From Dehalococcoides sp. JdFR-56 (GTDB lineage Bacteria; Chloroflexota; Dehalococcoidia; Dehalococcoidales; RBG-16-60-22): a DNA stretch of 64,000 bases. The notes under the pieces were generated by a model. It made no database searches. It worked only from the letters and a program-made list of their open reading frames with translations, and was not told the origin of the DNA. The position numbers and the translations under genes are program-made. Position 1 is the stretch's first letter. Each line of letters opens with the position of its first letter. The stretch covers positions 2,131 to 66,130 of the forward strand of contig MTNR01000061.1 of the NCBI GenBank assembly GCA_002011495.1. Reading direction: 5' to 3'. Shown here one piece after another: positions 1 through 19,251 of this stretch.

Positions 1-1150
1 GGGTCCCTCGGGGTGCTTCAACCACACCCACACCGTGTCCAGCACAGGGCGTAACCGCTTGCCTGGTATCGGGGTCCGTGAGCTCTGGGTCATTCAAGAG
101 CTCTACTGCCCTTTCTGCGCAATAAACTAATTCAATCAACCTTGCCCACTGATAAAGCAAGGTTGGCTGGGCTGGGCGACCGAACGTGCCTCTGAATTCC
201 TCCAGTTCTTTCTGGGCCAAAGGTGTCGGAATCCGGTCACACACGTTAATCCTCGCCAAGGCGTTTGTCCGGTATATCCCCACCGGGTGATTTAAGTCCA
301 TAGAGAACTGCCCCATTTTCTTGTAATACGGAAACTTAAGATAAGACCAGGGCTCCACGTGCTCGCCAATATAATCCAGATACTTTTCGGCAGGAAATTC
401 CTCGTATTTGCCATCAGGTGTCATCATGCGCAGGTCACCATCGTAGAGGTTCAGTTCACCGTTCTTAACTGTTCCCAGAAATCCGGTCTCAATGGTAGCC
501 AGCGATTTGACGACGTCCAGATATTTGGGGAAAATCTCCTTTTTGGCGAAATCAATAGCAAAAGTGGCGAAATCTAGGCATTCCTTCGCCATTCCCTTTA
601 GCGATTCAACCTCTTCCTTGGTAACGGGTTTGCTCCAGCCACCGGGAACAGAGACATCAGGATGGATAGCTTTCCCACCCAGAGTCTGCGTCATCATCTG
701 CCCCAAATATCTTACCTTAACCACCTGCTTGGCTATCTCAGGCACCTTCTGCACAATGCCAATCACGTTTCTTACCGAATAATCAGCATCGGGACCTATA
801 ACAAAGTCAGCTCCCGAGAGTATGAAGAAATGCAGCACATGGCTATGAATGAAATGACCCATATAGGCAAGTTCCCTGAGTTTTTTGGCAACCGAGGGTA
901 CATCGACGCCAAAAACAGCATCGCACGCTTTGGAGGAAGCAAGATGATGTGCCCAGGGACATACCCCACAAATACGTGGCACGATGCGCGGTAGCTCCTC
1001 TACCGGTCTGCCGATCGCAAACCTCTCAAACCCCCTAAGTTCCACAACATTTACCCTCGTATCAGCAACATTTCCCTGTTCATCGAGTTGAATCGTTATC
1101 TTGGCGTGACCTTCGATTCGAGTAACCGGTTGAATGACAATCTGTTTCAT
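1..1150 (-). CDS. mvhA: [NiFe] hydrogenase large subunit, Mvh/Vhu-like (group 3); 3' end cut by window edge
   Basis: Own translation of the minus strand from ATG at 1150..1148 gives MKQIVIQPVTRIEGHAKITIQLDE... It contains RICGVCPWAHHLAS (the N-terminal RxCGxCxxxH Ni-binding motif). At the window edge it reads GHGVGVVEAPRGT (EAPRG motif). It is absent from the ORF track because it runs off the window. It lies directly downstream of the small subunit. Confidence 0.85.
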   Translation of the reverse strand, partial: MKQIVIQPVTRIEGHAKITIQLDEQGNVADTRVNVVELRGFERFAIGRPVEELPRIVPRICGVCPWAHHLASSKACDAVFGVDVPSVAKKLRELAYMGHFIHSHVLHFFILSGADFVIGPDADYSVRNVIGIVQKVPEIAKQVVKVRYLGQMMTQTLGGKAIHPDVSVPGGWSKPVTKEEVESLKGMAKECLDFATFAIDFAKKEIFPKYLDVVKSLATIETGFLGTVKNGELNLYDGDLRMMTPDGKYEEFPAEKYLDYIGEHVEPWSYLKFPYYKKMGQFSMDLNHPVGIYRTNALARINVCDRIPTPLAQKELEEFRGTFGRPAQPTLLYQWARLIELVYCAERAVELLNDPELTDPDTRQAVTPCAGHGVGVVEAPRGT

Positions 1151-2103: not shown

Positions 2104-2307
2104 CTATATTGGTGGTGCTCCTTCAACCACCACTTCTTTGACTACCCTACGGGTAAACAAGAAGTATTCTCCGCCCTCCTCAATCATCTCAACCTCAAAA
2201 CCGTCATCTTTATATTTCTGCGCCATTTCCCTCCTTTCCTTTTCATCAGTGTACACTCTCCCGTCCCACATAAATTTTTTGCCATCGAATACTCGCGCTA
2301 GCTCCAT
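2104..2307 (-). CDS. small hypothetical protein (67 aa) between mvhD and the hydrogenase small subunit
   Basis: ATG preceded by GGAGGAAG 5 nt upstream. Tightly packed between neighbours (14-nt gaps each side). No family recognised. No Cys residues and no TM segment. Confidence 0.5.
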   Translation of the reverse strand: MELARVFDGKKFMWDGRVYTDEKERREMAQKYKDDGFEVEMIEEGGEYFLFTRRVVKEVVVEGAPPI

Positions 2308-2321
2308 TTAAACTTCCTCCA

Positions 2322-2738
2322 TCAGGTCTTATAAGGATTTGGACCTAGCTCCCTGATTTGCTCCGTCATTTCGGTTACCACCTGAGCGAATCTCGGCCCT
2401 TCGGAGGCTGAAACCCATTCTAACCTAAACCTTTCTTCCTCAAGCCCAAAATCTTGCAGCATGAGCCTAATCGCCTCCGCCCGTTTTTCGGCTTTTAAGT
2501 TACCTTCAAGGTAATGGCAATCACCCGGATGACATCCACAGATTAATACCCCATCAACCCCCTTGGTTAAGGCACCGATTACCAGATTTGGGTGAACCAT
2601 ACCCGAACACATTACCCGGATTATGCGTATATTGGGCGGATATTGTAATCTGGAAACACCAGCTAGGTCCGCCCCGGCATATGAACACCAGTTACAGCAA
2701 AAGGTTAATATCAGTGGCTCAAATGAAGCATCACCCAT
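2322..2738 (-). CDS. mvhD: methyl-viologen-reducing hydrogenase delta subunit (MvhD/FlpD family)
   Basis: The 138-aa ORF carries the family signature FCCNWCSYAGADLAG ... IRIIRVMCSG ... DGVLICGCHPGDCHY. Confidence 0.85.
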   Translation of the reverse strand: MGDASFEPLILTFCCNWCSYAGADLAGVSRLQYPPNIRIIRVMCSGMVHPNLVIGALTKGVDGVLICGCHPGDCHYLEGNLKAEKRAEAIRLMLQDFGLEEERFRLEWVSASEGPRFAQVVTEMTEQIRELGPNPYKT

Positions 2739-2766: not shown

Positions 2767-5700
2767 TTACACCGCTGCCTCGACCATGGCCATAATCTGG
2801 TCTAAACTGAAGTGTTTAACGAATATCCCTCGCTTGGGACAGGTTGCCTGACACGTCCCGCAGCCCTTGCATTTTAGTTCGTCAACCTCGACCGTCTTCT
2901 TAATCGTGCCGTTTTTCACGTACTCAATTAACGTGATTGCTTTGAACGGACAGGGGTCTATGCAATAAGCGCATCCGTCACAATTTTCGTCAATAACTTG
3001 GGAGATTGCTGCCTCAATCTCTATCTCGTCCTTTGAAATAATTGTGCTTGCCCTTGACGCCGCGGCTGATGCCTGGGCTATACTTTCGTCCACCGTCTTG
3101 GGGAAGTGGGCAAGACCACACAAGAAAACACCATCGGTAGCAAAATCAACTGGACGGAGTTTCATGTGCGCCTCTAGGAAGAAACCATCACTAGTTAGCG
3201 GAACCTTAAGTTTCTGGGCAAGTTCTTTGGCATCATCTCTCGGGATAACGCCTGTGGACAGGACCACAAGGTCTGCCTTAAGGTTAATATCAGCGTCTAA
3301 GACCGGGTCATATACTGTTACCTTTAGCTGCCCATCAAACCGCGCAACCTCTGGCGTTTTATCCCCGTCATAGACAACAAACCGCACGTCCTTCTCCCTC
3401 GCCTCGGTATAATACGACTCATTAAACCCATAGGTTCTCATGTCCCGATAGAGGACGAATACATGGGTCTCCGGACTCAGCTCTTTGATCTTTAGGGCAT
3501 TTTTGATTGCCTGGGGACAGCAGATACGGCTACAATAAAGCCGCGTCCCATTCCGAGAGCCGACACACTGAATCATAACCACTGTTCCCGGTTTAGACTT
3601 AAGGAACTCCCCATTGGCTAATTTTTCTTCTAATTCCAGCTGGGTGATAACCCTCTTATCCTCTCCATACAGATACTCGGTTGGCTTATACTCTTGACCT
3701 CCGGTAGCGACAATGACAACCCCATGCTTAAGGGAATGAACTGCGCCATTATATTTGAATTCCGTGGTGAAATTTCCCACCGAGCCTTCGATGTTTAAGA
3801 TTTGCGAATTGGTATAAATATGAATCTTAGGATGATGCTGTGCCCGGCTAATCAGCGACCTCAACCTTTCCTCAGGATTGTCGCCGTTTAAGAGAAGTTT
3901 CACTCGCCTCAGATTGCCCCCCAGGGCATCGCTTCGCTCAATCAGGTATGTTTCAAAGCCCTGGTCTGCCAGTTCAAGGGCTGATACTACACCAGCCACC
4001 CCACCGCCGATTACCAGAGCATCACGATTAATTTTTACCTTCTTTCGGGGAAGCGGTTCGAGGAGCCGAGCTCTGGCTACTGACATCCTGACTAGGTCTT
4101 TTGCCTTGAGCAGAGCTGCTTCCGGTTCGCTCGTATGGACCCAGGTGCACTGGTCCCGAATATTTGCCATTTCAAATAGGTAGGGATTAAGCCCTGCCTC
4201 GCGAACGACGCTCTGGAACAGAGGCTCGTGCGTCCGCGGGGTGCAGGCAGCAACGACAACACGGTTTAGATTATGTTCCCTTACTAACTGCTTAATTCTT
4301 TCTCCAGAGTCAGTAGAGCAGGTGTACAGAAAGTGTTCGGCACATACCACATTAGGCAGTGTCTTGGCATATTCGGCAACATCAGCAACATCGATCACGC
4401 CACCGATGTTCTTTCCGCAGTGGCAAATAAAAACCCCGACCCTCGGTTCCTCTCCACGAACATCCCTCTCAGGCGGATATACCTTTTCCTTCACCAATTT
4501 ACCCCGCTCCGTGGAAAGAAGGGAAAGTGACCGGGCGGCAGCGGCGCACCCCTGCATCACGCTCTCCGGGATATCTTTTGGTCCGGTGAAGGCCCCGGCA
4601 ACGAAAATCCCCTCCTTGGGAGAACTAACCGGGGTAAACGGGTTGGTCACGCAAAAGCCGTATTTGTTTAGCTCAAGACCAAATTTTTCGGCGATTTCAC
4701 CAGCGCACCTGGGGGATACCAGACCAGCCGATAAAACAACCATTTCATACTCTTCACACCGTTTCCTATCATCCTCGGTCAGATATTCAATTTTAAGATT
4801 CCTTGTTTCAGGCACTTCTGTAATCGTGGGCGGGCGGCATCTTATATAATTTACCCCCAGCGATTTTGCCCTACTATAGTACTCCTCAAACCCTTTGCTG
4901 AATGCGCGCATATCCATGTAAAATATGTCACACCTTAGCTCCTCTCCCAGATATTCCTTGGCAAGGATTGCTTCTTTGGTAGCATACATGCAGCAAACGG
5001 CAGAACAGTAATCCCTCTCGAAATCACGCGACCCCACGCATTGAATGAAGGCCAAGCTTTTGGGTGGCTTTGAATCAGAAAGACGCTGAATCTTCCCCCC
5101 AGTCGGTCCGGTGGGCGAGAGAAGCCTCTCAAACTGGAGGCTCGAGATAACATTGGGATACAGGCCAAACCCCAAATCGGGCTTCAGGTGCAGGTCGAAT
5201 AGCTCAAAACCAGGAGCTATGATTATTGCCCCTACACTTATGGTTACAAATTCCTCCTTATCCACCTCGTGATTTATGGCTTTTGCTTCGCACGCCTCGA
5301 CGCAGAGGAGACACTCGGAGCATATTGCGCAGGCAAGGCATCGCTTTGCCTCTTCTATCGCCTGCTCGGGCGTGAGCCCTCCCTGGACCTCGTTGAAATT
5401 ACGGATTCTCTCCCTCACTGGAAGCAGGGGGGCTGTAACACGCTTTTTCTTCTCAAGCCCTTTGAGTTCTACTTGCGCTCTCTCTGGCTCTTTTTTCTCA
5501 CGCCCAGCCCTGAGGTCCTCGCCCCGCAGATATCTGTCAATAGACTCAGCAGCTCTTTTGCCTGCTTCTATCGCATCGATTGCTCTCGCCGGGCCTGAGA
5601 CAGCATCACCACCAGCGAATACATACGGGACAGCGGTTTGCAGGGTGATGCTATCTACCTCTATCGTTCCTTGCTCCGTAACACGCATATTGGGTGCCAA

Positions 5701-7200
5701 GGGTAAAAGCGAAAGGTCAGGCTGCTGGCCAATCGCCGCGATGACTATATCGGCTGGGATTACGAATTCTGAGCCATTGATAGGTATGGGACGGCGCCTA
5801 CCACTCGCATCGGGTTCGCCAAGCTGCATCCTGACAAGTTTTATCTGCTCGACCTTCCCGTCCTTGGTCAAAATCTCAACGGGGGCGACAAGATACTGTA
5901 TTTTCACGCCCTCCTGCTCTGCTTCCTCAACCTCCCACGGACTTGCCGGCATCTCCGCTCTGGACCTTCGGTAGGCAATTATTACCTCACGGGCTCCGAG
6001 CCGAAGCGCGCTGCGTGCGGCATCAACTGCTGTATTGCCGCCGCCAATTACCACCACCCTCTTACCAGCAAGTTTTACATCTTTTCCGAGGTTAACATCT
6101 CTTAGGAACACTACCGCGTCTATAACCCCTTCCGAGTTCTCCCCGGGGATATCGAGCTTCAATCCTCTATGGGCACCCACGGCAATAAAGATGGCATCGT
6201 ATCCCTTATTTCTTAGCTCATCTAGCGAAGTTACCGGCGTATCGAGTTTTATTTCCACCCCAAGGTCGAGGACTGCGCTCTGGATTTCTTGGTCGATTAT
6301 TTCGCGAGGCAAGCGATATGCAGGCACCCCAACGCGCAACATGCCACCTGCCACCGGGAGTGCCTCGAAGATGGTAACGTTATACCCCCTCACGGCAAGA
6401 TAATGGGCACAGGATAGTCCAGCCGGCCCGGAGCCTATAATGGCCACCTTTTCCTTTCTCGTTTTCAATGTCTCTGGTAAGAGTGGCTTCTTGTCAGGAT
6501 TGGCAATTTCCCAGTCAGCCAGAAACCTCTTGAGCGCCGCGATAGATATCGGCTCATCCAATTCGCCTCGTTGGCATTCTGCCTCGCAAGGATGCGGACA
6601 TATACGCCCACAAATGCCGGGGAATGGATTCTCGCGCCTCTGCACAGCCAGCGCCTCGGCGAATCTGCCTTGGGCTATAAGGGCCACATAGGCATGTGGG
6701 TTAACACCCGCTGGGCAACCGAGCCTGCACGGCGAAACCCCTTGCTTGTCAATAGTAAAAGCGCTTGGGACCGCTTGGGGATACCGCCGATGTATTGCCG
6801 TGCGCTTTATAAGACCCAGGTCATATTCGCTATCAACTTTTATTGGGCATTTTTCTATACAGGCGCTGCATCCGGTGCATTTAGCTACGTCAATATATCT
6901 TGCTCTCTTTTTAAGGGTAACTTGAAAGTTTCCGGCGGAGCCACTAACTTTGTCCACCTCGGCGTTGGTGATAACTTCTATGTTCAGATGGCGGCTGATG
7001 TCGACTAACCTGGGAGCAATGGTGCACATAGCGCAATCCATCGTGGGGAAGGTCTTATCCAGTTGAACCATTGCCCCACCGATAGAGGACTTACTATCAA
7101 CCAGATAAACCTTAAGCCCAGAATCAGCCAAATCTAATGCGGCTTGCATTCCGCTTATGCCGCCGCCAACAACCATTACTGCTCCAATTTTCTCCGACAT
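2767..7200 (-). CDS. hdrA: 1477-aa fusion flavoprotein: HdrA-like FAD domain interrupted by a GltD/NfnB-like NAD(P)H module, followed by a complete second HdrA (HdrL-like)
   Basis: Uninterrupted ORF.
- aa 1-140: VVGGGISGMQAALDLA, DCAMCTIAPRL and CTGCSACIEKCP (HdrA-type).
- aa ~155-560: SPCRLGCPAG...GICGRICPHPCEAECQR, then KVAIIGSGPAGLSCAHYL and KRVVVIGGGNTAVDAA, ending VFAGGDAVSGPA. This is the glutamate synthase small-subunit / NfnB pattern.
- aa ~620-900: CLACAICSECLLCVEAC and FIQCVGSRD..YCSAVCCMYA.
- aa ~915-1477: VGVFICHCGKNIGG, AACTPRTHE, IRDQCTWVH, LVIGGGVAGV, QCVGSRN..YCSRICC, and C-terminal CDGCAYCIDPCP / CKGCGTCQATCP. Confidence 0.85.
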   Translation of the reverse strand: MSEKIGAVMVVGGGISGMQAALDLADSGLKVYLVDSKSSIGGAMVQLDKTFPTMDCAMCTIAPRLVDISRHLNIEVITNAEVDKVSGSAGNFQVTLKKRARYIDVAKCTGCSACIEKCPIKVDSEYDLGLIKRTAIHRRYPQAVPSAFTIDKQGVSPCRLGCPAGVNPHAYVALIAQGRFAEALAVQRRENPFPGICGRICPHPCEAECQRGELDEPISIAALKRFLADWEIANPDKKPLLPETLKTRKEKVAIIGSGPAGLSCAHYLAVRGYNVTIFEALPVAGGMLRVGVPAYRLPREIIDQEIQSAVLDLGVEIKLDTPVTSLDELRNKGYDAIFIAVGAHRGLKLDIPGENSEGVIDAVVFLRDVNLGKDVKLAGKRVVVIGGGNTAVDAARSALRLGAREVIIAYRRSRAEMPASPWEVEEAEQEGVKIQYLVAPVEILTKDGKVEQIKLVRMQLGEPDASGRRRPIPINGSEFVIPADIVIAAIGQQPDLSLLPLAPNMRVTEQGTIEVDSITLQTAVPYVFAGGDAVSGPARAIDAIEAGKRAAESIDRYLRGEDLRAGREKKEPERAQVELKGLEKKKRVTAPLLPVRERIRNFNEVQGGLTPEQAIEEAKRCLACAICSECLLCVEACEAKAINHEVDKEEFVTISVGAIIIAPGFELFDLHLKPDLGFGLYPNVISSLQFERLLSPTGPTGGKIQRLSDSKPPKSLAFIQCVGSRDFERDYCSAVCCMYATKEAILAKEYLGEELRCDIFYMDMRAFSKGFEEYYSRAKSLGVNYIRCRPPTITEVPETRNLKIEYLTEDDRKRCEEYEMVVLSAGLVSPRCAGEIAEKFGLELNKYGFCVTNPFTPVSSPKEGIFVAGAFTGPKDIPESVMQGCAAAARSLSLLSTERGKLVKEKVYPPERDVRGEEPRVGVFICHCGKNIGGVIDVADVAEYAKTLPNVVCAEHFLYTCSTDSGERIKQLVREHNLNRVVVAACTPRTHEPLFQSVVREAGLNPYLFEMANIRDQCTWVHTSEPEAALLKAKDLVRMSVARARLLEPLPRKKVKINRDALVIGGGVAGVVSALELADQGFETYLIERSDALGGNLRRVKLLLNGDNPEERLRSLISRAQHHPKIHIYTNSQILNIEGSVGNFTTEFKYNGAVHSLKHGVVIVATGGQEYKPTEYLYGEDKRVITQLELEEKLANGEFLKSKPGTVVMIQCVGSRNGTRLYCSRICCPQAIKNALKIKELSPETHVFVLYRDMRTYGFNESYYTEAREKDVRFVVYDGDKTPEVARFDGQLKVTVYDPVLDADINLKADLVVLSTGVIPRDDAKELAQKLKVPLTSDGFFLEAHMKLRPVDFATDGVFLCGLAHFPKTVDESIAQASAAASRASTIISKDEIEIEAAISQVIDENCDGCAYCIDPCPFKAITLIEYVKNGTIKKTVEVDELKCKGCGTCQATCPKRGIFVKHFSLDQIMAMVEAAV

Positions 7201-7206
7201 TCCGTC

Positions 7207-8349
7207 TCACCCTTCCAAAGACGTCTTGCCTTCCTTGCCGAGTTCCATCTGGGTTGCCTTTTCTTTGACTGCGTGAAAGTAAACCGCCAGCGGACGATAA
7301 AGAAGGTGAGGCGTCTTGCCAAAGGGCACAATAATCAGTGCCCATGGACTAAGTAGCACTAAGAAGATGACGTATATCCCGTAACCAACTTCTTTAACTC
7401 CCAGGGACAGAGATACATAAGCTAAAAAGAGCATGAAGACAAGGGTGGATAACCATATGGGAAATAGCCAGTCACTGAATTCAGAAAACTTGTGCATTGC
7501 CTCTTGTTTCTTGACACGGTCAACAACCAATATCGCGGTAAAGACGAATAAAACCGCGAGGACTACAATCACGGCTAGCTTGTACGGGTCAATTCCCGGT
7601 TGCTCGAATGGGTGATAGCCCGGGCGGATATAAGTCTTGAACGATTCCACTAATATAACCAAGATCAAAGTAAGTCCATACCCGTAAACAACAAAGAGGT
7701 GTTTGAACCAAAAAGCCTTCTCTTTACACTTTCTAAGCTGCAGCTGACTCAAAGCATGGAGCACCAAGGTTCTAAGCTCGGTAAGGTAAAGCCAAAAAGG
7801 AGGCCTAGGATTACTCCTGCCCAAAGTAAACCAAAACATCCGCAGGATATTGGGAATGAAAACGACCAGCGAGACAGCGAAGACCGCGGAGAGCGAAAAT
7901 AGGCTCCCGAATTCAAGAAGGCGGTGAGGATAGAGGTATAGTATTATTGAGGCGAGCATAGCCAGCCCAATCGTGGCAAGTGCCCCTATCTCCCATACCT
8001 TTGATTTATAGAACTTTGCCGAAAGGCCGGTCCAATCATACAGCGCGGTAAGGTACCGTCTGAGCGTCATCATCGATTCCCCGGTTTCCGTTTGCCGGGG
8101 ACATGAGGTGGCGCAATCGCCGCAGTAATAGCAAAGCCACGGGCCAAGACTGCCACGCAGCTTGTCTTTTAATCCGGCTCGCACATATTGTATATCTCTA
8201 CGGGGAGAAAAGGTGTTGCTATCTGATGTTAGTTTGCAGACAATGGTGCATCCGCCACAATTTAGGCAAGCATTGGCATCAAATTTGCCATAGTTACGGA
8301 CTTCGTCCAACAGGCCTGGGTCAGCCCAATTCTCATGTTTTCTCATCAT
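7207..8349 (-). CDS. QmoC-like protein: N-terminal HdrC-like 2x[4Fe-4S] domain fused to a multi-TM (NarI/HdrE-like) membrane domain
   Basis: 380-aa ORF. The N-terminus has CLNCGGCTIVCK ... FSPRRDI ... WLCYYCGDCATSCPR (HdrC-like spacing). About 6-7 hydrophobic helices follow, with several His residues in or near the helices (e.g. HRLLE, LHALS, KHLFVVYGY, TPHLLYRP). The architecture matches QmoC of sulfate reducers. Orthology was not tested. Confidence 0.6.
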   Translation of the reverse strand: MMRKHENWADPGLLDEVRNYGKFDANACLNCGGCTIVCKLTSDSNTFSPRRDIQYVRAGLKDKLRGSLGPWLCYYCGDCATSCPRQTETGESMMTLRRYLTALYDWTGLSAKFYKSKVWEIGALATIGLAMLASIILYLYPHRLLEFGSLFSLSAVFAVSLVVFIPNILRMFWFTLGRSNPRPPFWLYLTELRTLVLHALSQLQLRKCKEKAFWFKHLFVVYGYGLTLILVILVESFKTYIRPGYHPFEQPGIDPYKLAVIVVLAVLFVFTAILVVDRVKKQEAMHKFSEFSDWLFPIWLSTLVFMLFLAYVSLSLGVKEVGYGIYVIFLVLLSPWALIIVPFGKTPHLLYRPLAVYFHAVKEKATQMELGKEGKTSLEG

Positions 8350-8403: not shown

Positions 8404-8811
8404 CTAGGGCACTTTCATGGCCCAAATAAGACCGGAGCACGTCCAAATGAAATCGGAAGAGAAGACTTTTGATTTCAAACCCAGGAGTGCCACCTCTATT
8501 GTCTTCCGTGGGTTAAATTTACGGGCAATTTCAGCTATGAGGCGCCTTGCGAAACAAGTTCCACACACAATGCATCTTTTTATCTTTTCGCCACCGGGTT
8601 GAGCGGAAATCTCGTCACAAAATTTGAGATCCAGTTCATCATGAGATAGGACATCTGCTTCGTGTGGCATACGACCTCCGGTTCCAACACCACAAGTAGT
8701 GGCGCTTTTTCTTTCTCTTTTACTACATGCGTTTAATAGGCATCTTTCTCTCAGTGCCCACTCGTCGGGTCTTTCCAACATTTTGGCACCTGTTTCGCTC
8801 ATTCCCTGCAC
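8404..8811 (-). CDS. degenerate or truncated HdrC-like protein (135 aa); possibly a pseudogene
   Basis: It contains KRCIVCGTCFARR...FNPRKTIEVALLGLK...SSDFIWTC. This parallels the HdrC pattern CxxCxxCxxxCP...PRK...LG...W.CxxCxxCxxxCP. However, the fourth Cys-Pro is replaced (RR), and the ORF stops (TCSGLIWAMKVP*) before a second cluster motif. The other two frames do not restore the motif. Confidence 0.4.
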   Translation of the reverse strand: MQGMSETGAKMLERPDEWALRERCLLNACSKRERKSATTCGVGTGGRMPHEADVLSHDELDLKFCDEISAQPGGEKIKRCIVCGTCFARRLIAEIARKFNPRKTIEVALLGLKSKVFSSDFIWTCSGLIWAMKVP

Positions 8812-8858: not shown

Positions 8859-9548
8859 CTACGTATCCTGCCTCCTTTCCGTTTTCCATGGCAGCTCTAT
8901 CAGTCCTTTGCCCATGGCATACTTTATTAGCTCGGTACGATTACGGAGACCGAGCTTCTGCATCATGTTCGTCGTGTGCCTAAGCACCGTTTTCACGCTT
9001 ATGAAGAGCGCGTCGGCAATCTGCCGGTTGGTGTGCCCCTCAGCCACCAACTGTAGTATCTCTCTTTCCCTATCTGTGAGCCGCTCATATTCATTTTTTT
9101 CTTCTGCCACCTGCATCAAGTATTCCTGTATCAAAGTCATAGCTGCTGAAGGATAAAGGAACGACTCGCCTCTGTGCACAGCGCGTATGGCCGAAATAAG
9201 GTCTGACGCTGGGGCAGTCTTAGAGATATAACCCCGAGCTCCTGCCCGGAGCATGGAGAGGACATATTCCGGGTCATCGTACTGGGTGAGCACCAGCACC
9301 TTGACGCCGGGATTCTTTTTACGGATGCGCCGGGTAGCCTCAAGACCACCCATGATCGGCATCACGATGTCCATAAGCACTACTTGGGGAGCAAGCCGCC
9401 GTACCTTGTCAATCGCATCCCTCCCCTCACTTGCCTCCCCTACTATCTCAACATCCTCGCAATCCTTGAGCAGGGCACGGATCCCCTCCCTGAACATCGC
9501 GTGATCATCAACCACGAGCACCCTTATCTTAGACACCTCCCTATCCAC
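8859..9548 (-). CDS. NarL/FixJ-family response regulator (REC + LuxR-type HTH), paralog 1
   Basis: IRVLVVDDHAMFREG ... VVLMDIVMP (acceptor Asp) ... LTDREREILQLVAEGHTNRQIADALFISVKTVLRH. The start is uncertain: GTG at 9548, or the GTG 12 nt downstream, which aligns with the paralog's MSKI start. Confidence 0.85.
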   Translation of the reverse strand: MDREVSKIRVLVVDDHAMFREGIRALLKDCEDVEIVGEASEGRDAIDKVRRLAPQVVLMDIVMPIMGGLEATRRIRKKNPGVKVLVLTQYDDPEYVLSMLRAGARGYISKTAPASDLISAIRAVHRGESFLYPSAAMTLIQEYLMQVAEEKNEYERLTDREREILQLVAEGHTNRQIADALFISVKTVLRHTTNMMQKLGLRNRTELIKYAMGKGLIELPWKTERRQDT

Positions 9549-9804
9549 CCTCTACCGGGTCTCGATCCCCGAACTGCTACTGCTAGCTAAGCACCACTGC
9601 TGTGCCCAAGGCGCTGCGCGACAACCCCCATAACCCACGACCCATTGTTTATGCACAATCCCTCGGGACATGGGCTGGTGGTCCGCCGCTAGGGATATCT
9701 ACCTAGATATTAGGCAAATATGCTCTGGAAAAACAGGGAAAACATACTCAAAATTGTGTGCAAAAGTGCGTAATTATGTGGGAAAAATATCCCACTCCAG
9801 CGGT

Positions 9805-9841
9805 CAAAAAGAGGGGGGACTCTCCTGCAGAGAGTCCCCCC
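9805..9841 (-). terminator. rho-independent terminator after response regulator paralog 2
   Basis: Perfect 12-bp stem GGGGGGACTCTC (9813..9824) / GAGAGTCCCCCC (9830..9841) with a 5-nt loop. On the minus strand the stem is followed by TCTTTTTG. It lies 28 nt downstream of the stop at 9869. Confidence 0.75.
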
Positions 9842-9868
9842 TATGCAATTAACTACCTCGCCTGTTGT

Positions 9869-10537
9869 TCAGTCTTTTTCCATTTTACATGGCATCTCAA
9901 TTAACCCTTTGCTAATGGCGTACTTTATTAGGTCAGTGCGATTATGAAAGCCCAGCTTCTCCATAATGTTGGTCCGGTATCTGAGCACCGTTTTGACGCT
10001 GATGGAGAGCCTTTCCGCAATGTCGCGGTTGGTGTGTCCCTCAGCCACCAGCTGGAGAATCTCCCTTTCTCGGTCGGTAAGGCGCTCGTACTCGTTTTTT
10101 TCACCGCCGACCCGTGTCAGGTATTCCTCAATTAGAGCGGTGGCAGCGGAGGGATAAAGGAAGGACTCCCCCTTATGAAGAGTGCGGATAGCAGAAACCA
10201 ATTCTGAGGCGGTGGCGGTCTTGGAAATGTAGCCCCAGGCACCTGCCCTGAGCATGGGGAGGATATACTCGCTGTCTTCATACTGGGTGAGTACCAGCAC
10301 CCTCGCGTTCGGGTTTTCCCTGCGAATACGCCGGGTCGCCTCCAGACCTCCCATGACGGGCATGGCGATATCCATAAGCACAACATGCGGGCCGAGCTGG
10401 CGCATCTTTTCGATGGCTTCCCTACCCTCAGCGGCCTCCCCTACTATCTCAACATCTTCATAACTGTCCAGCAGGGAACGAATCCCCTCTCTGAACATAG
10501 CGTGGTCATCGACCACTAGCACCTTTATCTTGGACAT
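9869..10537 (-). CDS. NarL/FixJ-family response regulator, paralog 2
   Basis: MSKIKVLVVDDHAMFREG ... VVLMDIAMP ... LTDREREILQLVAEGHTNRDIAERLSISVKTVLRY. It aligns colinearly with paralog 1, with roughly three quarters of residues identical by eye. It overlaps the kinase stop by 32 nt. Confidence 0.85.
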   Translation of the reverse strand: MSKIKVLVVDDHAMFREGIRSLLDSYEDVEIVGEAAEGREAIEKMRQLGPHVVLMDIAMPVMGGLEATRRIRRENPNARVLVLTQYEDSEYILPMLRAGAWGYISKTATASELVSAIRTLHKGESFLYPSAATALIEEYLTRVGGEKNEYERLTDREREILQLVAEGHTNRDIAERLSISVKTVLRYRTNIMEKLGFHNRTDLIKYAISKGLIEMPCKMEKD

Positions 10538-12368
10538 CTCCTTCCCCCCACTTTACCGGGATTTCCACTGCCACTCTGGTCCCACCACCTGGTCTAGTAT
10601 CAATGGTGAAAGTTCCTCCCAGCAACTCAGCACGCTCTTTCATGCCCAATAAACCCACTCCCTTGCTGGTGCCGGCTGGGGAACTAAACACATGTGAGGG
10701 GTCAAAGCCAACACCGTCATCTTCAATTTGAAGACCAATGCTCTCATCATTGAACTCCAAGCTAAGATAGGCGCTTTCGGCACGAGCGTGGCAGGCAATG
10801 TTGGTGATTGCCTCCTGGGCGATGCGAAAAAGCGCTATCTCCACCTGCGGTGGCAACCTTCTCTCCTGACCAATGACCTCCAGGTGTACCTCTACTCCAG
10901 CGGCGTCCAGGGCATTATGAGCACATGATCGCAGCGCGGCAGGCAGCCCCAGATCATCAAGCAGACTGGGTCTCAGGTCATAGATTAATCTATGCACCTC
11001 CTTGGAGGTACTAGCCAGCAAAGACTTTATCCCTTCCAGTTGGTTGGCGATGTCCTTGGCCTTTAGCCTCGACTGAGTGGTCAGGGCTTCCAAGCGAACG
11101 GCGAGAGTAGCCAGAGCCTGACTGGTCACATCGTGAAGTTCCCGGGCCACCCGACGACGCTCGTCCTCCTGAGCGGAGATGAGTTGCCGCAAGAGTTCGG
11201 TCCGTATTTGCTCCTTGAGCTGGAGTTCGCGGTACAACTGGGCATTCTCGATAGCAATGCCTAACTGATGCCCCAGCGCAGTCAAGAGCTGCACTTCCTG
11301 CTGGGAAAAGGACCGTACTTTTCGGCTGGCTACATTGAGCACGCCGACCACTCTCTCCTTGGACTTCAAAGGCACACTAACCAGCGCTTTTAACCCTTCT
11401 TCGGCCACTACCGGCCGTGTAATTCTCGGTTCCCGGGAAATATCGTCCACCACCAGGGTTTCGCCCCGCTGGGCAACCTGCCCAGCGATGCCTTCCCCTA
11501 ACGCAAGACCGGAAACTCCCTGGACAAACTGTTCTGACAGACCACGATGAACCTGGTAGGAAAGCGTTTGCGAGTTCTCGTCAAGAAGTAGAATACCGCC
11601 AACTTCAGCATCTACAAGGTCAAGGACTTTATCCAGGGCACTGTTGAGTACGATGTCAAGGCTCATTGATTGGCTCACCGTGCTGGCAACGGCATTCAGA
11701 GCAAGAAGATGGCGGTTAGCCTCTAGGATTCGTTTTTCCAGCTCCTTACTTTCAGTAACATCCCTAATTAGCTCCACGACCTGGGTGATTTTGCCGTCGG
11801 TATCGTATACCGGTGAGGCGCTTACCTCAACATACCTCTCCTGCCTAAAGCCTCCCTTAGCGGTACGGTGCACATGAACTACTCGAACCGGTGTGCCAGT
11901 TTGCCAGACCTTTCTCACCGGACAGGTACAGGAGGGCGAATGACAGGGATGGCTCATCTGGTGGGTTACCTCATAGCAGTAGCGCCCCACGACCTCCTGA
12001 TCTGGGTGCTTAAGGCACAGACTTCGGTTGGCCTGAATGATACGCCATCGTTCATCCAGTACCATCAAGTCTTCGTCAAGACTATCAATAATAGTTTGCA
12101 AGAAATCCCGGGACCTCCTTAGCTGTTCAGCTGATTCGTCTAATAACCGGTTCTTTTGCTCCAACTCTTGTAAGGAATCCCTCAGCCGTTCTCGCATTAC
12201 TTGGTAGGTGTTCGCCGGTAGCCCGGTTTCCGCTCTGGCGAACCGAGCTACTTGACTAACCAGCCTCAGCAAGCTGTGTCGAATCGTCCGGGTCAGAGTG
12301 ACCCAGACCAAGGTGCTAAGGTTGGTCACCAACTGGATTTTGTGTACCACAAGGGCCGCAACACCCAT
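10506..12368 (-). CDS. sensor histidine kinase, apparently soluble: PAS - GAF - HisKA_3 - HATPase_c (NarX/LiaS class)
   Basis: PAS-like region with LMVLDERWRIIQANRS. GAF-like region (LLLDENSQTLSYQVHRGL ... SVPLKSKERVVGVLNV). H-box RVARELHDVTSQAL. ATPase N/G boxes (QEAITNI, DDGVGF, GLLGMKERAELLGG). No convincing TM helix. The N-terminal start is uncertain. Confidence 0.85.
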   Translation of the reverse strand: MGVAALVVHKIQLVTNLSTLVWVTLTRTIRHSLLRLVSQVARFARAETGLPANTYQVMRERLRDSLQELEQKNRLLDESAEQLRRSRDFLQTIIDSLDEDLMVLDERWRIIQANRSLCLKHPDQEVVGRYCYEVTHQMSHPCHSPSCTCPVRKVWQTGTPVRVVHVHRTAKGGFRQERYVEVSASPVYDTDGKITQVVELIRDVTESKELEKRILEANRHLLALNAVASTVSQSMSLDIVLNSALDKVLDLVDAEVGGILLLDENSQTLSYQVHRGLSEQFVQGVSGLALGEGIAGQVAQRGETLVVDDISREPRITRPVVAEEGLKALVSVPLKSKERVVGVLNVASRKVRSFSQQEVQLLTALGHQLGIAIENAQLYRELQLKEQIRTELLRQLISAQEDERRRVARELHDVTSQALATLAVRLEALTTQSRLKAKDIANQLEGIKSLLASTSKEVHRLIYDLRPSLLDDLGLPAALRSCAHNALDAAGVEVHLEVIGQERRLPPQVEIALFRIAQEAITNIACHARAESAYLSLEFNDESIGLQIEDDGVGFDPSHVFSSPAGTSKGVGLLGMKERAELLGGTFTIDTRPGGGTRVAVEIPVKWGEGDVQDKGASGR

Positions 12369-18081: not shown

Positions 18082-19251
18082 ATGAAACGAGGAAGGATGC
18101 TAGCGTCTCTGGTTATGGTAGTGGCATTGGGCATGGCGTTGGTCAGTGCTTGTGCCGCCCCGGCGCCGACTCCTGCTCCAGCTCCAGCGCCGGCCCCTGC
18201 CCCAGCGCCAGCTCCTGCCCCGGCTCCTGCTCCAGCTCCAGCGCCAGCCCCAGCACCGACCCCCACGCCAACACCGACACCAGCCCAGCCTCCGAAGGTG
18301 ATTACCTGGAAGGCGCAGTCTCACACTCCTTCTGGGAATCCCATGTATCAAGGGCTTGAGGAGACGGCCAACTTCATTGCCCAGGCCAGCGGTGGGCGTT
18401 TGATTATCGAGGTCAATCCGGCCGGCGCCCTCGTGGAGGCGACCAAGGAGTTTGACGGGGTGCATGGGGGCGTGATTCAGCTTGGCACCGGTGCCGCCAG
18501 TTACTGGCGGGACAAGTTCCCGGCGGCTGGTCTGTTCACCTTCACCGTTGGCGGCCTGAGCCCGATGGAGTCGCTTTACTGGTGGATGACCGGGGGAGGT
18601 AAAGAGCTGCTGCATCGTATGATTGCCGATTACGATGTAAAGGCGTTTGCCGGTGAGATTACCCCTCCAGAGATATTCCTGCAGTCCACGGTACCCTTGG
18701 AAACGCTGGATGACATCAAGGGGTTGAAGATTCGAACTGCTGGTGATGACGGGGAAATCTTCGCCCGCATGGGTGCCTCAGTGGTCTTCCTGCCAGCAGG
18801 AGAAATCTACGAATCCATGCAGCGAGGGGTAATTGATGCAGCTCAGTTGAGCACCCCGGCGCTGGACTGGTCCTTCGGTATGCAGGAGGTTGCTGATTAC
18901 CTCTACCTCTCCGGAGTCCGCCAGCCCGCAGACTGGAGCTTATTCTTTGTCAAGAAATCTGAGTTTGAGGCGCTGCCCGATGACCTAAAGCGGATTGTTG
19001 AGGCGGAGATGGAGGCGCTGACGCCGAGGTTTTACGGCTGGCTGATGACGAGGGACATCGAGGCAATGAAGAACTTCAAGGAGTACGGCACCAATATTGC
19101 CCCAGCCTCCAAGGAAATAGTCGATGAGCTGGTAAGGCAAGCTAGGATCTTCTACGAAGAGAAGGCTGCTGAAGACCCCTTCTTTGCCGAGGTGATCCAC
19201 TCCATCTGGGATTTCCAGAAGCTCTATCGGGAGACCTGGGAGCGTCTCTAG
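18082..19251 (+). CDS. TRAP transporter substrate-binding lipoprotein (DctP type) with a 42-residue X-Pro linker
   Basis: AGGAGGGAGAGAAG precedes the ATG. Signal peptide with lipobox LVSAC. (AP/TP)21 linker. The mature domain begins ITWKAQSH..., typical of the DctP-type (COG4663-like) receptors. It is followed by DctQ/DctM genes. Confidence 0.85.
   Translation: MKRGRMLASLVMVVALGMALVSACAAPAPTPAPAPAPAPAPAPAPAPAPAPAPAPAPAPTPTPTPTPAQPPKVITWKAQSHTPSGNPMYQGLEETANFIAQASGGRLIIEVNPAGALVEATKEFDGVHGGVIQLGTGAASYWRDKFPAAGLFTFTVGGLSPMESLYWWMTGGGKELLHRMIADYDVKAFAGEITPPEIFLQSTVPLETLDDIKGLKIRTAGDDGEIFARMGASVVFLPAGEIYESMQRGVIDAAQLSTPALDWSFGMQEVADYLYLSGVRQPADWSLFFVKKSEFEALPDDLKRIVEAEMEALTPRFYGWLMTRDIEAMKNFKEYGTNIAPASKEIVDELVRQARIFYEEKAAEDPFFAEVIHSIWDFQKLYRETWERL
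18157..18282 (+). repeat. in-frame (GCN-CCN / ACN-CCN)21 low-complexity tract encoding the (Ala/Thr-Pro) linker
   Basis: Codon-by-codon reading gives A26-P27 through T66-P67, 21 consecutive X-Pro dipeptides with mixed synonymous codons. Confidence 0.95.

Follow-up and report, generated by a model that had tools for sequence, protein, structure and literature searches.

HdrL of a Dehalococcoidia genome, a tandem HdrA protein with an inserted NADPH module, lies in a conserved operon with a hydrogenase and a QmoC-like membrane protein

Here, we report that a Dehalococcoidia MAG, JdFR-56, encodes HdrL, a single polypeptide in which two HdrA modules share one chain and an NfnB/GltD-like NADPH:FAD module is spliced into the first of them. 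This architecture is already described, as HdrL (2009) and as type II/III HdrA (2022, 2025); the newer part of the finding is the conserved operon around it, which includes a QmoC-like membrane protein and lacks HdrB (Table 1), along with a cassette swap that distinguishes it from a twin operon. The product is very probably an HdrL-type protein working with MvhD and Mvh, and the operon probably connects hydrogen and NADPH with a membrane electron carrier. A three-substrate bifurcating mechanism, in which H2, NADP(H), and quinone would meet at an HdrA flavin, is put forward tentatively. All coordinates refer to the window, the 64,000-nucleotide (64-kb) stretch of DNA that was analysed.

Table 1. 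Features of the hdrL operon in the window
Feature	Coordinates	Strand	Evidence
mvhA: [NiFe]-hydrogenase large subunit	1..1150	-	RICGVCP motif in translation
mvhG: [NiFe]-hydrogenase small subunit, 307 aa	1166..2089	-	VhuG 233 bits, Oxidored_q6
orf67: small conserved ORF between mvhD and mvhG	2104..2307	-	
mvhD: [2Fe-2S] electron-transfer subunit, 138 aa	2322..2738	-	Pfam FlpD 188 bits
hdrL: tandem HdrA with inserted NADPH module	2767..7200	-	ORF, Pfam, NCBIfam, Cys conservation
Module 2 C-terminal 2x[4Fe-4S] ferredoxin domain, aa 1391-1477, plus stop	2767..3030	-	
Module 2 FAD core, aa 1051-1390 (GGGVAG, HA4, K1233)	3031..4050	-	
Linker and module 2 N-terminal HdrA domain, aa 906-1050	4051..4485	-	5ODC_A match, Cys conservation
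Module 1, aa 627-905 (second ferredoxin Cys motif, FAD core remainder, HA4, K742)	4486..5322	-	
NfnB/GltD-like NADPH:FAD module, aa 154-626	5323..6741	-	phmmer, Foldseek, model
Module 1, aa 1-153 (GGGISG FAD start, C56/C59, first ferredoxin Cys motif)	6742..7200	-	
QmoC-like membrane protein, 380 aa	7207..8349	-	NCBIfam qmoC, conservation
orf88: short HdrC/QmoC N-terminal-like ORF	8404..8670	-	Weak NCBIfam qmoC, HdrC matches

The hdrL reading frame starts at an ATG, spans 1477 aa with no internal stops, and is real. It is unbroken in three other assemblies from different samples, the identical protein is present on four contigs that differ in sample and assembler, and NCBI lists it as HEY82658.1, 1477 aa long and encoded on a 442-kb contig. 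At least 597 species genomes from many phyla encode the full-length architecture, end-to-end alignments are obtained with more than 120 clusters of proteins 1470-1540 aa long, and the junction regions are conserved among homologues. Given these independent assemblies and relatives, the possibility that an assembly error or frameshift fused separate genes into one long frame, for which supporting evidence was looked for and none found, can be dismissed. The first-pass annotation, which had raised this possibility, was thus right in proposing a single uninterrupted polypeptide, though it omitted the minus strand; its description of an unusual device does not hold given this breadth of occurrence and the earlier literature.

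The four dinucleotide-binding motifs lie exactly where first annotated (GGGISG at aa 12-17, GSGPAG at 256-261, GGGNTA at 386-391, and GGGVAG at 1065-1070), and their glycines are invariant across 26 homologues. These are not chance motifs, as they fall inside matches to the Pyr_redox_2 (E 2e-66), HdrA2 (993 bits), and GltD-type PRK12771 (574 bits, cut-off 516) models; HdrL scores under the NCBIfam HdrA cut-offs. Invariance in the same homologues extends to 40 of the 48 Cys, and the predicted cofactors are three FAD, nine [4Fe-4S] clusters, and a Cys56/Cys59 pair. Both HdrA flavin sites look intact, with GxGxxG, the four HA4-cluster Cys, and the Lys409-equivalents (K742, K1233) invariant in both modules. 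An AlphaFold model of aa 1-915 (pLDDT 87.6, pTM 0.82) retrieves HdrA cores in Foldseek outside the insert, with TM scores of 0.85-0.90 normalised to the target.

Module 1 is indeed split by the insert: HdrL aa 33-153 match residues 171-291 of the solved HdrA 5ODC_A, aa 627-804 match residues 293-471, and once the insert is removed the module matches the HdrA2 profile in a single stretch (positions 141-562). The insert (aa ~154-626) measures 473 aa rather than the ~450 first estimated, and it lies inside the HdrA inserted ferredoxin domain, the location that the annotation had singled out for checking, between the two cluster motifs of that domain (C108, C111, C114, C118 and C627, C630, C633, C637). 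The HA4 cluster of this module comprises C721, C732, C736, and C737. Residue C59 corresponds to Cys/Sec197 of methanogen HdrA, and an in-frame TGA stands exactly at its position in 23 of 80 species loci; many HdrL relatives thus carry Sec there, in line with the annotation, whereas the JdFR-56 protein has Cys throughout.

The insert itself holds an FAD site (GSGPAG), an NADPH site (GGGNTA plus YRRS), and eight Cys for two [4Fe-4S] clusters (C158, C162, C197, C201, C205, C209, C621, C624). Six of these are at its start, in line with the Cys-rich N terminus annotated earlier, but the other two (RC621LAC624) are at its end, the insert being a circular permutation of the NfnB and GltD arrangement (HdrL aa 596-625 pair with NfnB residues 14-43). 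Matches in phmmer (9bov_A, 458 bits; 8oh5_C, 376 bits; 4ylf_B, 339 bits) and Foldseek (9bov_A, rmsd 1.8 A, 47% identity; 5jca_L, TM 0.81) support the proposed HdrL-type fusion of HdrA with an NfnB/GltD-like unit, and the insert is closest to the non-bifurcating StnC/NfnABC class. The GltD-like domain of StnC/NfnABC, as well as NfnB (8OH5, 9BOV, 9N5U, 4YLF, 5JCA; PMC10482914), has the same fold, FAD and NADPH sites, two [4Fe-4S] clusters, and conserved Arg (R296), and StnC/NfnABC additionally shares the circular permutation and a CPHPCE motif. Their domain sits on a NuoG/FdhF-like scaffold, however, whereas the insert is embedded in HdrA, and no NfnA, StnA, or StnB partner is found in the 64-kb window. 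GGGNTA conforms to GxGxxA, an NADP-type motif by the rule in PMC12054007, and a YRRSxxEMPA stretch is common to the insert and the NADPH-binding StnC and NfnB, both of which argue for NADPH rather than NADH.

Module 2 matches 5ODC_A over HdrL aa 917-1096 (residues 2-181, 237 bits) and 1290-1475 (residues 467-648). Its N-terminal domain carries C926, C928, C961, and C986, plus C1018 (present in 19 of the 26 homologues), its HA4 cluster comprises C1212, C1223, C1227, and C1228, and its C-terminal ferredoxin has eight invariant Cys. The first-pass annotation had described residues ~915-1477 as a complete second HdrA; the N-terminal Cys domain, FAD core, and C-terminal ferredoxin are borne out, but completeness is not. 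In blastp against module 1 and in the HdrA2 profile, module 2 lacks the Cys/Sec pair, the ~85-aa inserted ferredoxin domain, and DKTFPTxDCxxC: ~86 aa of module 1 are replaced by ~10 aa, and the profile skips positions ~230-320. The two modules thus read as complementary partial HdrAs, and the single chain probably mimics an HdrA dimer or a QmoA/QmoB pair.

The most likely role of HdrL is determined by its operon context, with Mvh hydrogenase, MvhD, a QmoC-like protein, and no HdrB. The genes are tightly spaced in the order QmoC-like, HdrL, MvhD, orf67, MvhG, MvhA, protease; the operon is identical in the three other assemblies, and the same gene set recurs in relatives of 56-67% identity from Acidobacteriota, Syntrophorhabdus, and metagenomes. 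Directly downstream of hdrL, mvhD is found in 71 of 80 species loci, and the QmoC-like gene adjoins hdrL in relatives. Only the first 383 of 478 aa of MvhA are present before the gene runs off the window; a full copy in L001 matches VhuA at 503 bits. The QmoC-like protein, with an HdrC-like 2x[4Fe-4S] domain and six hydrophobic segments, aligns over its whole length to NCBIfam qmoC at 116 bits, far under the cut-off of 300. Eight Cys, H217, and H348 are invariant in it, but a His found in the last transmembrane segment of 17 of 21 homologues is Phe here, which leaves haem and quinone binding uncertain. No family match was found for orf67, which has homologues (42-76% identity) in related operons, while orf88, called as a gene in L001 too, retains only a CxxCxxC remnant and is possibly a decayed hdrC. 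HdrB, MetF/V, and NfnA-like genes are absent from the 64-kb window; genes for HdrBC or a different acceptor may lie in other parts of the genome.

A twin operon (L084) encodes an HdrA backbone ~86% identical to HdrL, without the NADPH module and with an ordinary inserted ferredoxin domain. Its other genes are 64-95% identical, and both the hydrogenase and the pairing of HdrA with a QmoC-like protein are kept. The similarity of the backbones points to a recent cassette swap, and, judging by the ordinary domain of the twin, the NADPH module fills the ferredoxin port.

Complex formation, the nature of the substrates, and bifurcation are inferences drawn from positional homology with Mvh-HdrABC. 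Methanogen MvhADG-HdrABC (5ODC; Hdr-Vhu-Fwd, PMC13518236) has homologous HdrA domains, MvhD, MvhG, and MvhA, shares the Cys/Sec197 pair and HA4 cluster, and uses the inserted ferredoxin as its low-potential exit (PMC13518236). In the HdrL operon, by contrast, HdrB and HdrC are missing, one asymmetric chain replaces the HdrA homodimer, and an NADPH module fills the ferredoxin port. QmoABC of sulfate reducers likewise has two HdrA-like flavoproteins, a membrane protein fusing an HdrC-like to a cytochrome-b-like domain, and an MvhD-type element with a proposed hydrogenase partner, and coupling of quinol with hydrogenase via the MvhD-like domain has been proposed (PMC3333476). Unlike HdrL, QmoA and QmoB are separate and lack an NADPH module; MvhD has its own gene in the HdrL operon, the QmoC-like protein falls short of the qmoC cut-off, and no aprAB was seen near hdrL.

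In the proposed mechanism, HdrL would form the centre of a complex whose other members, all encoded in the operon, are MvhD, the MvhAG [NiFe]-hydrogenase, and, in place of HdrBC, the QmoC-like membrane iron-sulfur protein; the StnC/NfnB-like NADPH:FAD:2x[4Fe-4S] module interrupts the inserted ferredoxin domain of module 1. An HdrA flavin would split electrons into a high-potential branch, through an HA4 cluster and the QmoC-like protein to quinone, and another that passes first the clusters of the inserted ferredoxin, then both clusters of the NADPH module, and last the module FAD, which would reduce NADP+. Overall, the mechanism would give 2 H2 + quinone + NADP+ -> quinol + NADPH + H+, a reversible reaction; if true, NADPH could be made at H2 pressures too low for H2 alone to drive the step. 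No purification, assay, or structure of HdrL was found in the searched literature.

It is also conceivable, if rather unlikely, that the same complex is wired in the opposite direction, with NADPH as the middle-potential donor, hydride passing to the insert FAD and electrons through four [4Fe-4S] clusters to a bifurcating HdrA flavin, whose outlets would be quinone (high potential) and protons, the latter reached through MvhD and Mvh (2 NADPH + 2 H+ + quinone -> 2 NADP+ + quinol + H2); in reverse, H2 and quinol would be confurcated to make NADPH. At standard potentials H2 (-414 mV) lies below NADPH (-320 mV) and NADPH below menaquinone (-74 mV), which favours this direction by making NADPH the middle-potential partner, and relatives occur in syntrophs (Syntrophorhabdus, Syntrophales) that need such reactions. 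StnC and NfnABC, the closest solved relatives of the insert, use their module as an NADPH entry toward a distant bifurcating flavin, the StnC module being a non-bifurcating wire into an iron-sulfur chain (PMC10482914). However, the insert takes the position of the HdrA branch to the low-potential acceptor ferredoxin, and the insert-less twin keeps the hydrogenase, the donor branch by homology; sequence does not separate the two directions.

Energy coupling may be absent altogether, HdrL acting as a long iron-sulfur/flavin wire between Mvh and NADP(H) in an NADP-linked hydrogenase, with the QmoC-like protein a mere membrane anchor or separate outlet. Under standard conditions H2 can reduce NADP+ exergonically without any bifurcation, the homologous StnC flavin module is non-bifurcating, and the three ways in which related operons bring a pyridine-nucleotide module (GltD insert, NuoE/F-like genes, or a PyrK-like gene) suggest a generic NAD(P)H link. 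We nevertheless consider such a wire unlikely: invariance across phyla of two HdrA flavin/HA4 sites, the Cys/Sec pair, and the Lys409-equivalents would be costly for it, the three-port topology is conserved, and the characterised HdrA complexes in the cited literature are all described as bifurcating. Quite improbable is a thiol/disulfide or methylene-tetrahydrofolate partner (HdrBC, DsrC, MetFV) of the kind typical of most other HdrL loci but encoded elsewhere, with the local QmoC-like gene incidental. HdrB-like (at least 34), MetF (39), and MetV (38) genes do neighbour hdrL in the 80 species loci, HdrABC/HdrL are abundant in sulfate-grown Syntrophobacter, and orf88 resembles an hdrC remnant, but HdrBC, DsrC, and MetFV genes are absent from the 64-kb window, the QmoC-like gene ends 6 nt before hdrL begins, and the QmoC-like/HdrL pairing persists in the closest relatives and the insert-less twin.

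Finally, HdrL of Desulfobacterium autotrophicum HRM2 and Syntrophobacter fumaroxidans (Strittmatter 2009; PMC2702500; PMC5947623) is by description, like ours, a large, soluble HdrA-derived chain that is rich in iron-sulfur centres and includes an NAD(P)H module of the glutamate-synthase type; its function is predicted only, and mvhD follows its gene. These HdrL genes belong to sulfate reducers and neighbour DsrABC, Fdh, or HdrABC, in contrast to the Mvh hydrogenase and QmoC-like protein in this Dehalococcoidia MAG. In the group of type III (GltD-inserted) and type II (tandem) HdrA and ANME-1 HdrA9-11, too, an NfnB/GltD-like unit of ~470-500 aa interrupts the inserted ferredoxin, with a proposed role of letting NAD(P)H take the place of ferredoxin, and tandem archaeal HdrA has, as HdrL does, a second thioredoxin-reductase-like domain (PMC12054007; PMC9012536). 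Whereas type II/III HdrA proteins come from methane-metabolising archaea and pair with HdrBC, JdFR-56 HdrL is bacterial, unites the two features in a single chain, has a QmoC-like partner, and carries the NADP-type GxGxxA rather than the GxGxxG of archaeal type III proteins (PMC12054007).

The hdrL gene is a single minus-strand ORF with an ATG start and no internal stop, whereas the plus strand of the same interval translates into many stop codons. All four glycine-rich dinucleotide-binding motifs reported in the first-pass annotation are present at the residues it named, and their glycines do not vary among 26 aligned full-length homologues. These motifs lie inside strong profile matches and so are not chance occurrences: Pfam identifies Pyr_redox_2 (E 2e-66), Fer4_20 (the GltD/DPD cluster domain, E 2e-23) and a C-terminal dicluster ferredoxin, and among NCBIfam models HdrA2 matches in four stretches (993 bits) and the GltD-type PRK12771 matches aa 151-648 (574 bits against a cut-off of 516), which together bear out the proposed identity as an HdrL-type fusion. 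The concern that separate genes had been joined by an assembly artefact can be set aside, as four contigs from different samples and assemblers encode an identical HdrL protein, and the same 1477-aa protein is already deposited from a Dehalococcoidia MAG, on a 442-kb contig (HEY82658.1), named only "FAD-dependent oxidoreductase." In addition, HdrL aligns end to end, at 55-67% identity, with over 120 protein clusters whose members are 1470-1540 aa long. When each species was represented by one genome, at least 597 genomes encoded relatives, the best 80 of which are nearly all full length. The arrangement is therefore not the rarity that the annotation took it for; the HdrL described here belongs to a known, widespread and biochemically uncharacterised kind, which hundreds of genomes of anaerobes from many phyla encode. 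In sulfate reducers, syntrophs, acetogen-like Chloroflexi and ANME archaea, such proteins have repeatedly been called on to supply the missing connection from NAD(P)H to low-potential metabolism.

Alignment to the solved methanogen HdrA (5ODC_A; see table) places the insert between the two Cys motifs of the HdrA inserted ferredoxin domain (C108/111/114/118 and C627/630/633/637), at a point between 5ODC_A residues 291 and 293. When the insert is deleted in silico, module 1 matches HdrA2 as a single stretch (positions 141-562, 476 bits), and the same ferredoxin domain is uninterrupted in P0089, an insert-less tandem HdrA encoded by a closely related twin operon. Structure prediction, proposed earlier as a check on the position of the insert, agrees: in a confident AlphaFold model of aa 1-915 (pLDDT 87.6, pTM 0.82), Foldseek superposes the model outside the insert on HdrA cores (target-normalised TM 0.85-0.90), and the insert is looped out. 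A model of P0089 is likewise confident (pTM 0.86).

[quoted passage not shown] Module 2 had been described as a complete second HdrA, and this description is incorrect because the module covers positions 1-229 and then ~304/321-649 of the HdrA2 profile, passing over the inserted ferredoxin domain (some 86 aa in module 1 against ~10 aa in module 2), and carries unrelated sequence at the place corresponding to DKTFPTMDC56AMC59 of module 1. The two cores share 31% identity (E 2e-24), and both retain GxGxxG, the HA4 cysteines and an equivalent of 5ODC Lys409 (K742 in module 1 and K1233 in module 2, both invariant), a residue that we take to contact the flavin. The modules are complementary, jointly holding two FAD cores and one copy of each accessory domain. 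Forty of the 48 HdrL cysteines are invariant among the 26 homologues, and from these we predict nine [4Fe-4S] clusters; the chain is further predicted to have three FAD sites. The inserted ferredoxin domain, the insert and the C-terminal ferredoxin would each hold two of the clusters, the N-terminal domain would hold one, and each module would have one of HA4 type. NCBIfam searches with each module separately, comparing likeness to QmoA and to QmoB, matched HdrA models only and no QmoA or QmoB model.

Sequence searches with the insert score highest against GltD-like domains of the NfnABC/Stn class (9bov_A 458 bits, 9n5u_A 427 bits, 8oh5_C 376 bits), followed by NfnB (4ylf_B 339 bits, 5jca_L 337 bits) and GltD (~235 bits). 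It is circularly permuted relative to NfnB, whose N-terminal residues 14-43, ending RCLQC, align past the nucleotide-binding core to HdrL aa 596-625, ending RC621LAC624. StnC and NfnABC have the same permutation and share the cluster motif CPHPCE with the insert, whereas NfnB has CPQEVQCE. Eight ligands for two clusters are present (C158, C162, C197, C201, C205, C209, C621 and C624), and Foldseek superposes the insert on 9bov_A with an rmsd of 1.8 A over 479 columns at 47% identity, and on NfnB-type structures with target-normalised TM 0.80-0.81 (0.81 for NfnI-L, 5jca_L). The second nucleotide motif of the insert, GGGNTA, reads GxGxxA, an NADP-type motif by the rule quoted in PMC12054007, and is followed by a YRRSxxEMPA sequence common to the insert and the NADPH-binding StnC and NfnB. 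The homologous module of StnC has been found experimentally to be a non-bifurcating NADPH entry wire (PMC10482914). The arginine discussed in that study is kept in all three proteins (R296 in HdrL) and hence does not discriminate on bifurcation. We consider it less likely that the insert flavin bifurcates, as in NfnB, since the window encodes no NfnA-like high-potential branch and the permutation and cluster motif are of the type found in the non-bifurcating StnC.

HdrL C59 occupies the position of Cys/Sec197 in methanogen HdrA, where a 2026 structure implicates a Cys-Sec relay near the flavin (PMC13518236). The window copy has Cys, and 23 of 80 hdrL loci (the best 80 of at least 597 relatives) have an in-frame TGA at this codon, which probably encodes selenocysteine, in keeping with the first-pass remark that relatives are often selenoproteins. 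The first residue of the DCxxC pair is Cys in 68 of 68 sequences, and a scan for in-frame stops placed the putative Sec at the second. The TGA-containing loci (L010, L019, L031, L035, L038 and 18 further) are mostly from Desulfobacterota and carry the codon at the second Cys of FPTxDCAM-C; standard gene callers would split or truncate such genes.

The neighbours of hdrL in the operon are tightly spaced and all on its strand, in the transcription order orf88, QmoC-like gene, hdrL, mvhD, orf67, mvhG, mvhA and a maturation protease gene, the last taken from a complete copy of the operon in another assembly (L001) since mvhA continues past the window start. As in Mvh-type (group 3c) [NiFe]-hydrogenases, MvhA, MvhG and MvhD are encoded together, with VhuA (503 bits), VhuG (233 bits) and VhuD/FlpD as best families; these scores fall below the methanogen equivalog cut-offs, and the window proteins are therefore bacterial relatives, not strict orthologues. 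The QmoC-like protein is colinear with the qmoC model (aa 14-357 on positions 6-359 of 360) at 116 bits against a cut-off of 300, and has eight invariant Cys, six hydrophobic segments and invariant His217 and His348. Its Phe329, in the last transmembrane segment, takes the place of a His that 17 of 21 homologues have. Phe also stands here in the QmoC-like protein encoded by the twin operon, and a haem ligand may have been lost in the lineage of the two proteins.

Features of the operon and its surroundings, and HdrL segments with their matches in 5ODC_A
Feature	Position	Strand	Details
Two paralogous NarL/GerE-type response regulators and a PAS-GAF-HisKA_3 histidine kinase	8859-12368	(-)	229, 222 and 620 aa; directly upstream
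orf88	8404-8670	(-)	short putative HdrC-like remnant; longer GTG-started ORF to 8811
QmoC-like gene	7207-8349	(-)	380 aa; stop 6 nt before hdrL start
hdrL	2767-7200	(-)	1477 aa
mvhD	2322-2738	(-)	VhuD/FlpD 134/188 bits; 28 nt after hdrL
orf67	2104-2307	(-)	67 aa; between mvhD and mvhG; no Pfam/NCBIfam match
Putative solute-binding protein	18082-19251	(+)	followed by two membrane-protein ORFs
HdrL module 1	aa 1-905, less the insert
HdrL segment	aa 33-153		5ODC_A 171-291
HdrL insert	aa ~154-626
HdrL segment	aa 627-804		5ODC_A 293-471
HdrL module 2	aa ~906-1477
HdrL segment	aa 917-1096		5ODC_A 2-181
HdrL segment	aa 1290-1475		5ODC_A 467-648

Two small ORFs accompany these genes. The gene immediately preceding the QmoC-like gene is orf88, and three further assemblies have an identical copy. 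Its product resembles the N-terminal half of HdrC/QmoC, with CxxCxxC kept and the fourth Cys and second motif lost; it may be a decayed hdrC, left when the QmoC-like gene replaced hdrCB. The orf67 product is kept at 42-76% identity in related Mvh operons of several phyla, in the same position or beside the QmoC-like gene; it may represent a small subunit, or an assembly factor, that has gone unrecognised. Within the 64-kb window we found no HdrB-, MetF-, MetV- or NfnA-like genes, and the only HdrC-like sequences in it are the N-terminal domain of the QmoC-like protein and orf88. The locus offers a compact, self-contained context of hydrogenase, HdrL and membrane module without HdrB in the window, which leaves H2, NADP(H) and a carrier in the membrane as the likely substrates.

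Partner genes were counted in 80 species loci, the best 80 of at least 597 relatives, after a single-linkage "HdrB" neighbour cluster that mixed HdrB, HdrC, HdrCB fusions and QmoC-like proteins had been re-split by CCG motifs, ferredoxin motifs and hydrophobic segments. The mvhD gene lies directly 3' of hdrL at 71 of the 80 loci, HdrB-like genes are nearby at 34 or more, and MetF, MetV and Mvh hydrogenase occur at 39, 38 and 11, respectively. QmoC-like proteins are confined to the closest relatives, from four Acidobacteriota and one Syntrophorhabdus, and one Chloroflexi locus with Mvh has HdrC and HdrB at the QmoC-like position. In the two nearest insert-containing metagenomic relatives, the gene set matches that of the window.

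For the HdrA backbone, the nearest relative is not itself an HdrL: P0089 (1014 aa) has no insert and an ordinary inserted ferredoxin domain. Its operon (L084, a contig from Logan SRR11308169) has the same layout as that of the window, with the other shared genes 64-95% identical (MvhG 89%, MvhA 95% over its first 99 aa, MvhD 81%, orf67 76%, QmoC-like protein 64%). The backbone outside the inserted ferredoxin domain is 83-88% identical (about 86%), in contrast to 55% for that domain (aa 101-153), a pattern that speaks for the swap of a cassette and against mere deletion. The window backbone shares only 59-66% identity with any insert-containing HdrL, and the cassette of inserted ferredoxin domain plus NADPH module is 71-78% identical to that of the insert-containing relative P0002. 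In a neighbour-joining tree of the backbone columns, built without bootstrap, insert-containing and insert-less forms are interleaved, and the window HdrL groups with P0089 and then P0260, both insert-less. On these grounds hdrL is a mosaic gene, for which recent gain of the cassette is the most parsimonious history.

Some insert-less relatives share the same QmoC-like/Mvh operon. Another, L087, has a PyrK/NfnA-like gene downstream instead of a hydrogenase, and the insert-less tandem HdrA of a Bacteroidales genome (L090, GCA_035529055.1) has an N-terminal [2Fe-2S] domain and upstream NuoE/F-like genes. Together with the insert, these point to at least three ways of supplying a pyridine-nucleotide link. 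At a further locus (L089, 14210-15584), TusA, DsrE and DsrH sulfur-relay genes adjoin an insert-less QmoC-like/HdrAA/Mvh operon, which hints at a tie to sulfur metabolism for some members of the operon family.

The name HdrL dates from 2009, when it was given to a fusion of heterodisulfide reductase and glutamate synthase that has mvhD after it and is in some copies a selenoprotein (Strittmatter 2009, PMC2702500), and the window protein shares the HdrA-related chain, the glutamate-synthase-type NAD(P)H module and mvhD directly downstream. HdrL has since been detected in Syntrophobacter proteomes (PMC5947623) and invoked in a sulfur disproportionator. For HdrA9-11 of ANME-1, an inserted ferredoxin domain interrupted by an NfnB-like insertion has been described (PMC9012536), and type III HdrA, to which this insertion belongs, was formalised in 2025 alongside tandem type II (PMC12054007); the window protein shares the GltD-type insert in that domain with type III, and the second thioredoxin-reductase-like FAD domain in one chain with type II. 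Unlike canonical HdrABC, with HdrB and HdrC partners, the window has no HdrB-like match within 64 kb, and its HdrA scores lie below the curated equivalog cut-offs (993 vs 1100, 736 vs 1400 and 697 vs 1300 bits). QmoABC has separate QmoA and QmoB and is linked to aprAB, whereas here both HdrA-like modules are fused in one ORF, and the ORFs inspected around hdrL include no AprAB-like product. The NfnB-type fold, FAD, NADPH site and two [4Fe-4S] clusters of NfnAB are matched by the insert, but its NfnA partner ([2Fe-2S]/FAD, PyrK-like) has no match in the window and the native NfnB topology is permuted. We found no purification or assay of any HdrL in the literature searched, nor any description there of an Mvh/HdrL/QmoC-like operon or of an Mvh-HdrA-QmoC or H2/NADPH/quinone complex; an acidobacterial homologue locus has been annotated only as group 3c hydrogenase (peat Acidobacteria paper). 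What the present locus adds is twofold: an operon context, and an insert-less twin, comparison with which opens the function of the NADPH module to testing and gives a direct experimental handle on the role of the insert.

Our analysis establishes the cofactor-site architecture of HdrL, its three "ports" and their conservation. Electrons from H2 could, by positional homology with Mvh-HdrABC, enter via MvhD into the branch of C-terminal and N-terminal clusters; an HA4 cluster would pass electrons to the HdrC-like domain of the QmoC-like protein in place of HdrBC; and the inserted ferredoxin branch, whose usual exit is to ferredoxin, would here end in the NADPH module. It is conceivable, though we would not call it probable, that these proteins form an uncharacterised membrane-anchored Mvh-HdrL-QmoC-like complex coupling H2/H+, NADP+/NADPH and quinone/quinol by bifurcation, with quinone standing in for heterodisulfide and NADPH for ferredoxin, and with the NADPH port recently swapped in. 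Since that port would have arrived as a cassette, the near-identical operons with and without it would then be a natural pair of ferredoxin and NADPH types.

The reaction that we prefer for such a complex would be 2 H2 + quinone + NADP+ -> quinol + NADPH + H+, coupled reversibly at an HdrA flavin. The relevant potentials are -414 mV for H2, -320 mV for NADPH and -74 mV for menaquinone, from which the reaction is calculated to be exergonic at standard conditions and to remain so when H2 is at ~1 Pa and the NADPH pool is reduced, conditions under which H2 by itself could not reduce NADP+. In the main rival scheme the roles are exchanged: NADPH would be the donor of middle potential, and the products would be H2 and quinol; the analogy with Stn and the standard potentials favour it, but the sequence is compatible with either direction. 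Were the coupling real, it would allow NADPH to be made from trace H2, or NADPH electrons to be shed as H2, with the quinone pool as thermodynamic lever. HdrL might also be a non-bifurcating wire, or might work with partners encoded elsewhere.

The response regulators and histidine kinase encoded directly upstream are candidate regulators of the operon. The remainder of the window is ordinary chromosome, with PriA, FtsA, LeuS and a 2-oxoacid:ferredoxin oxidoreductase among its genes. The putative solute-binding protein has a long N-terminal low-complexity linker of (Pro-Ala)n/(Thr-Pro)n repeats after a signal-like sequence.
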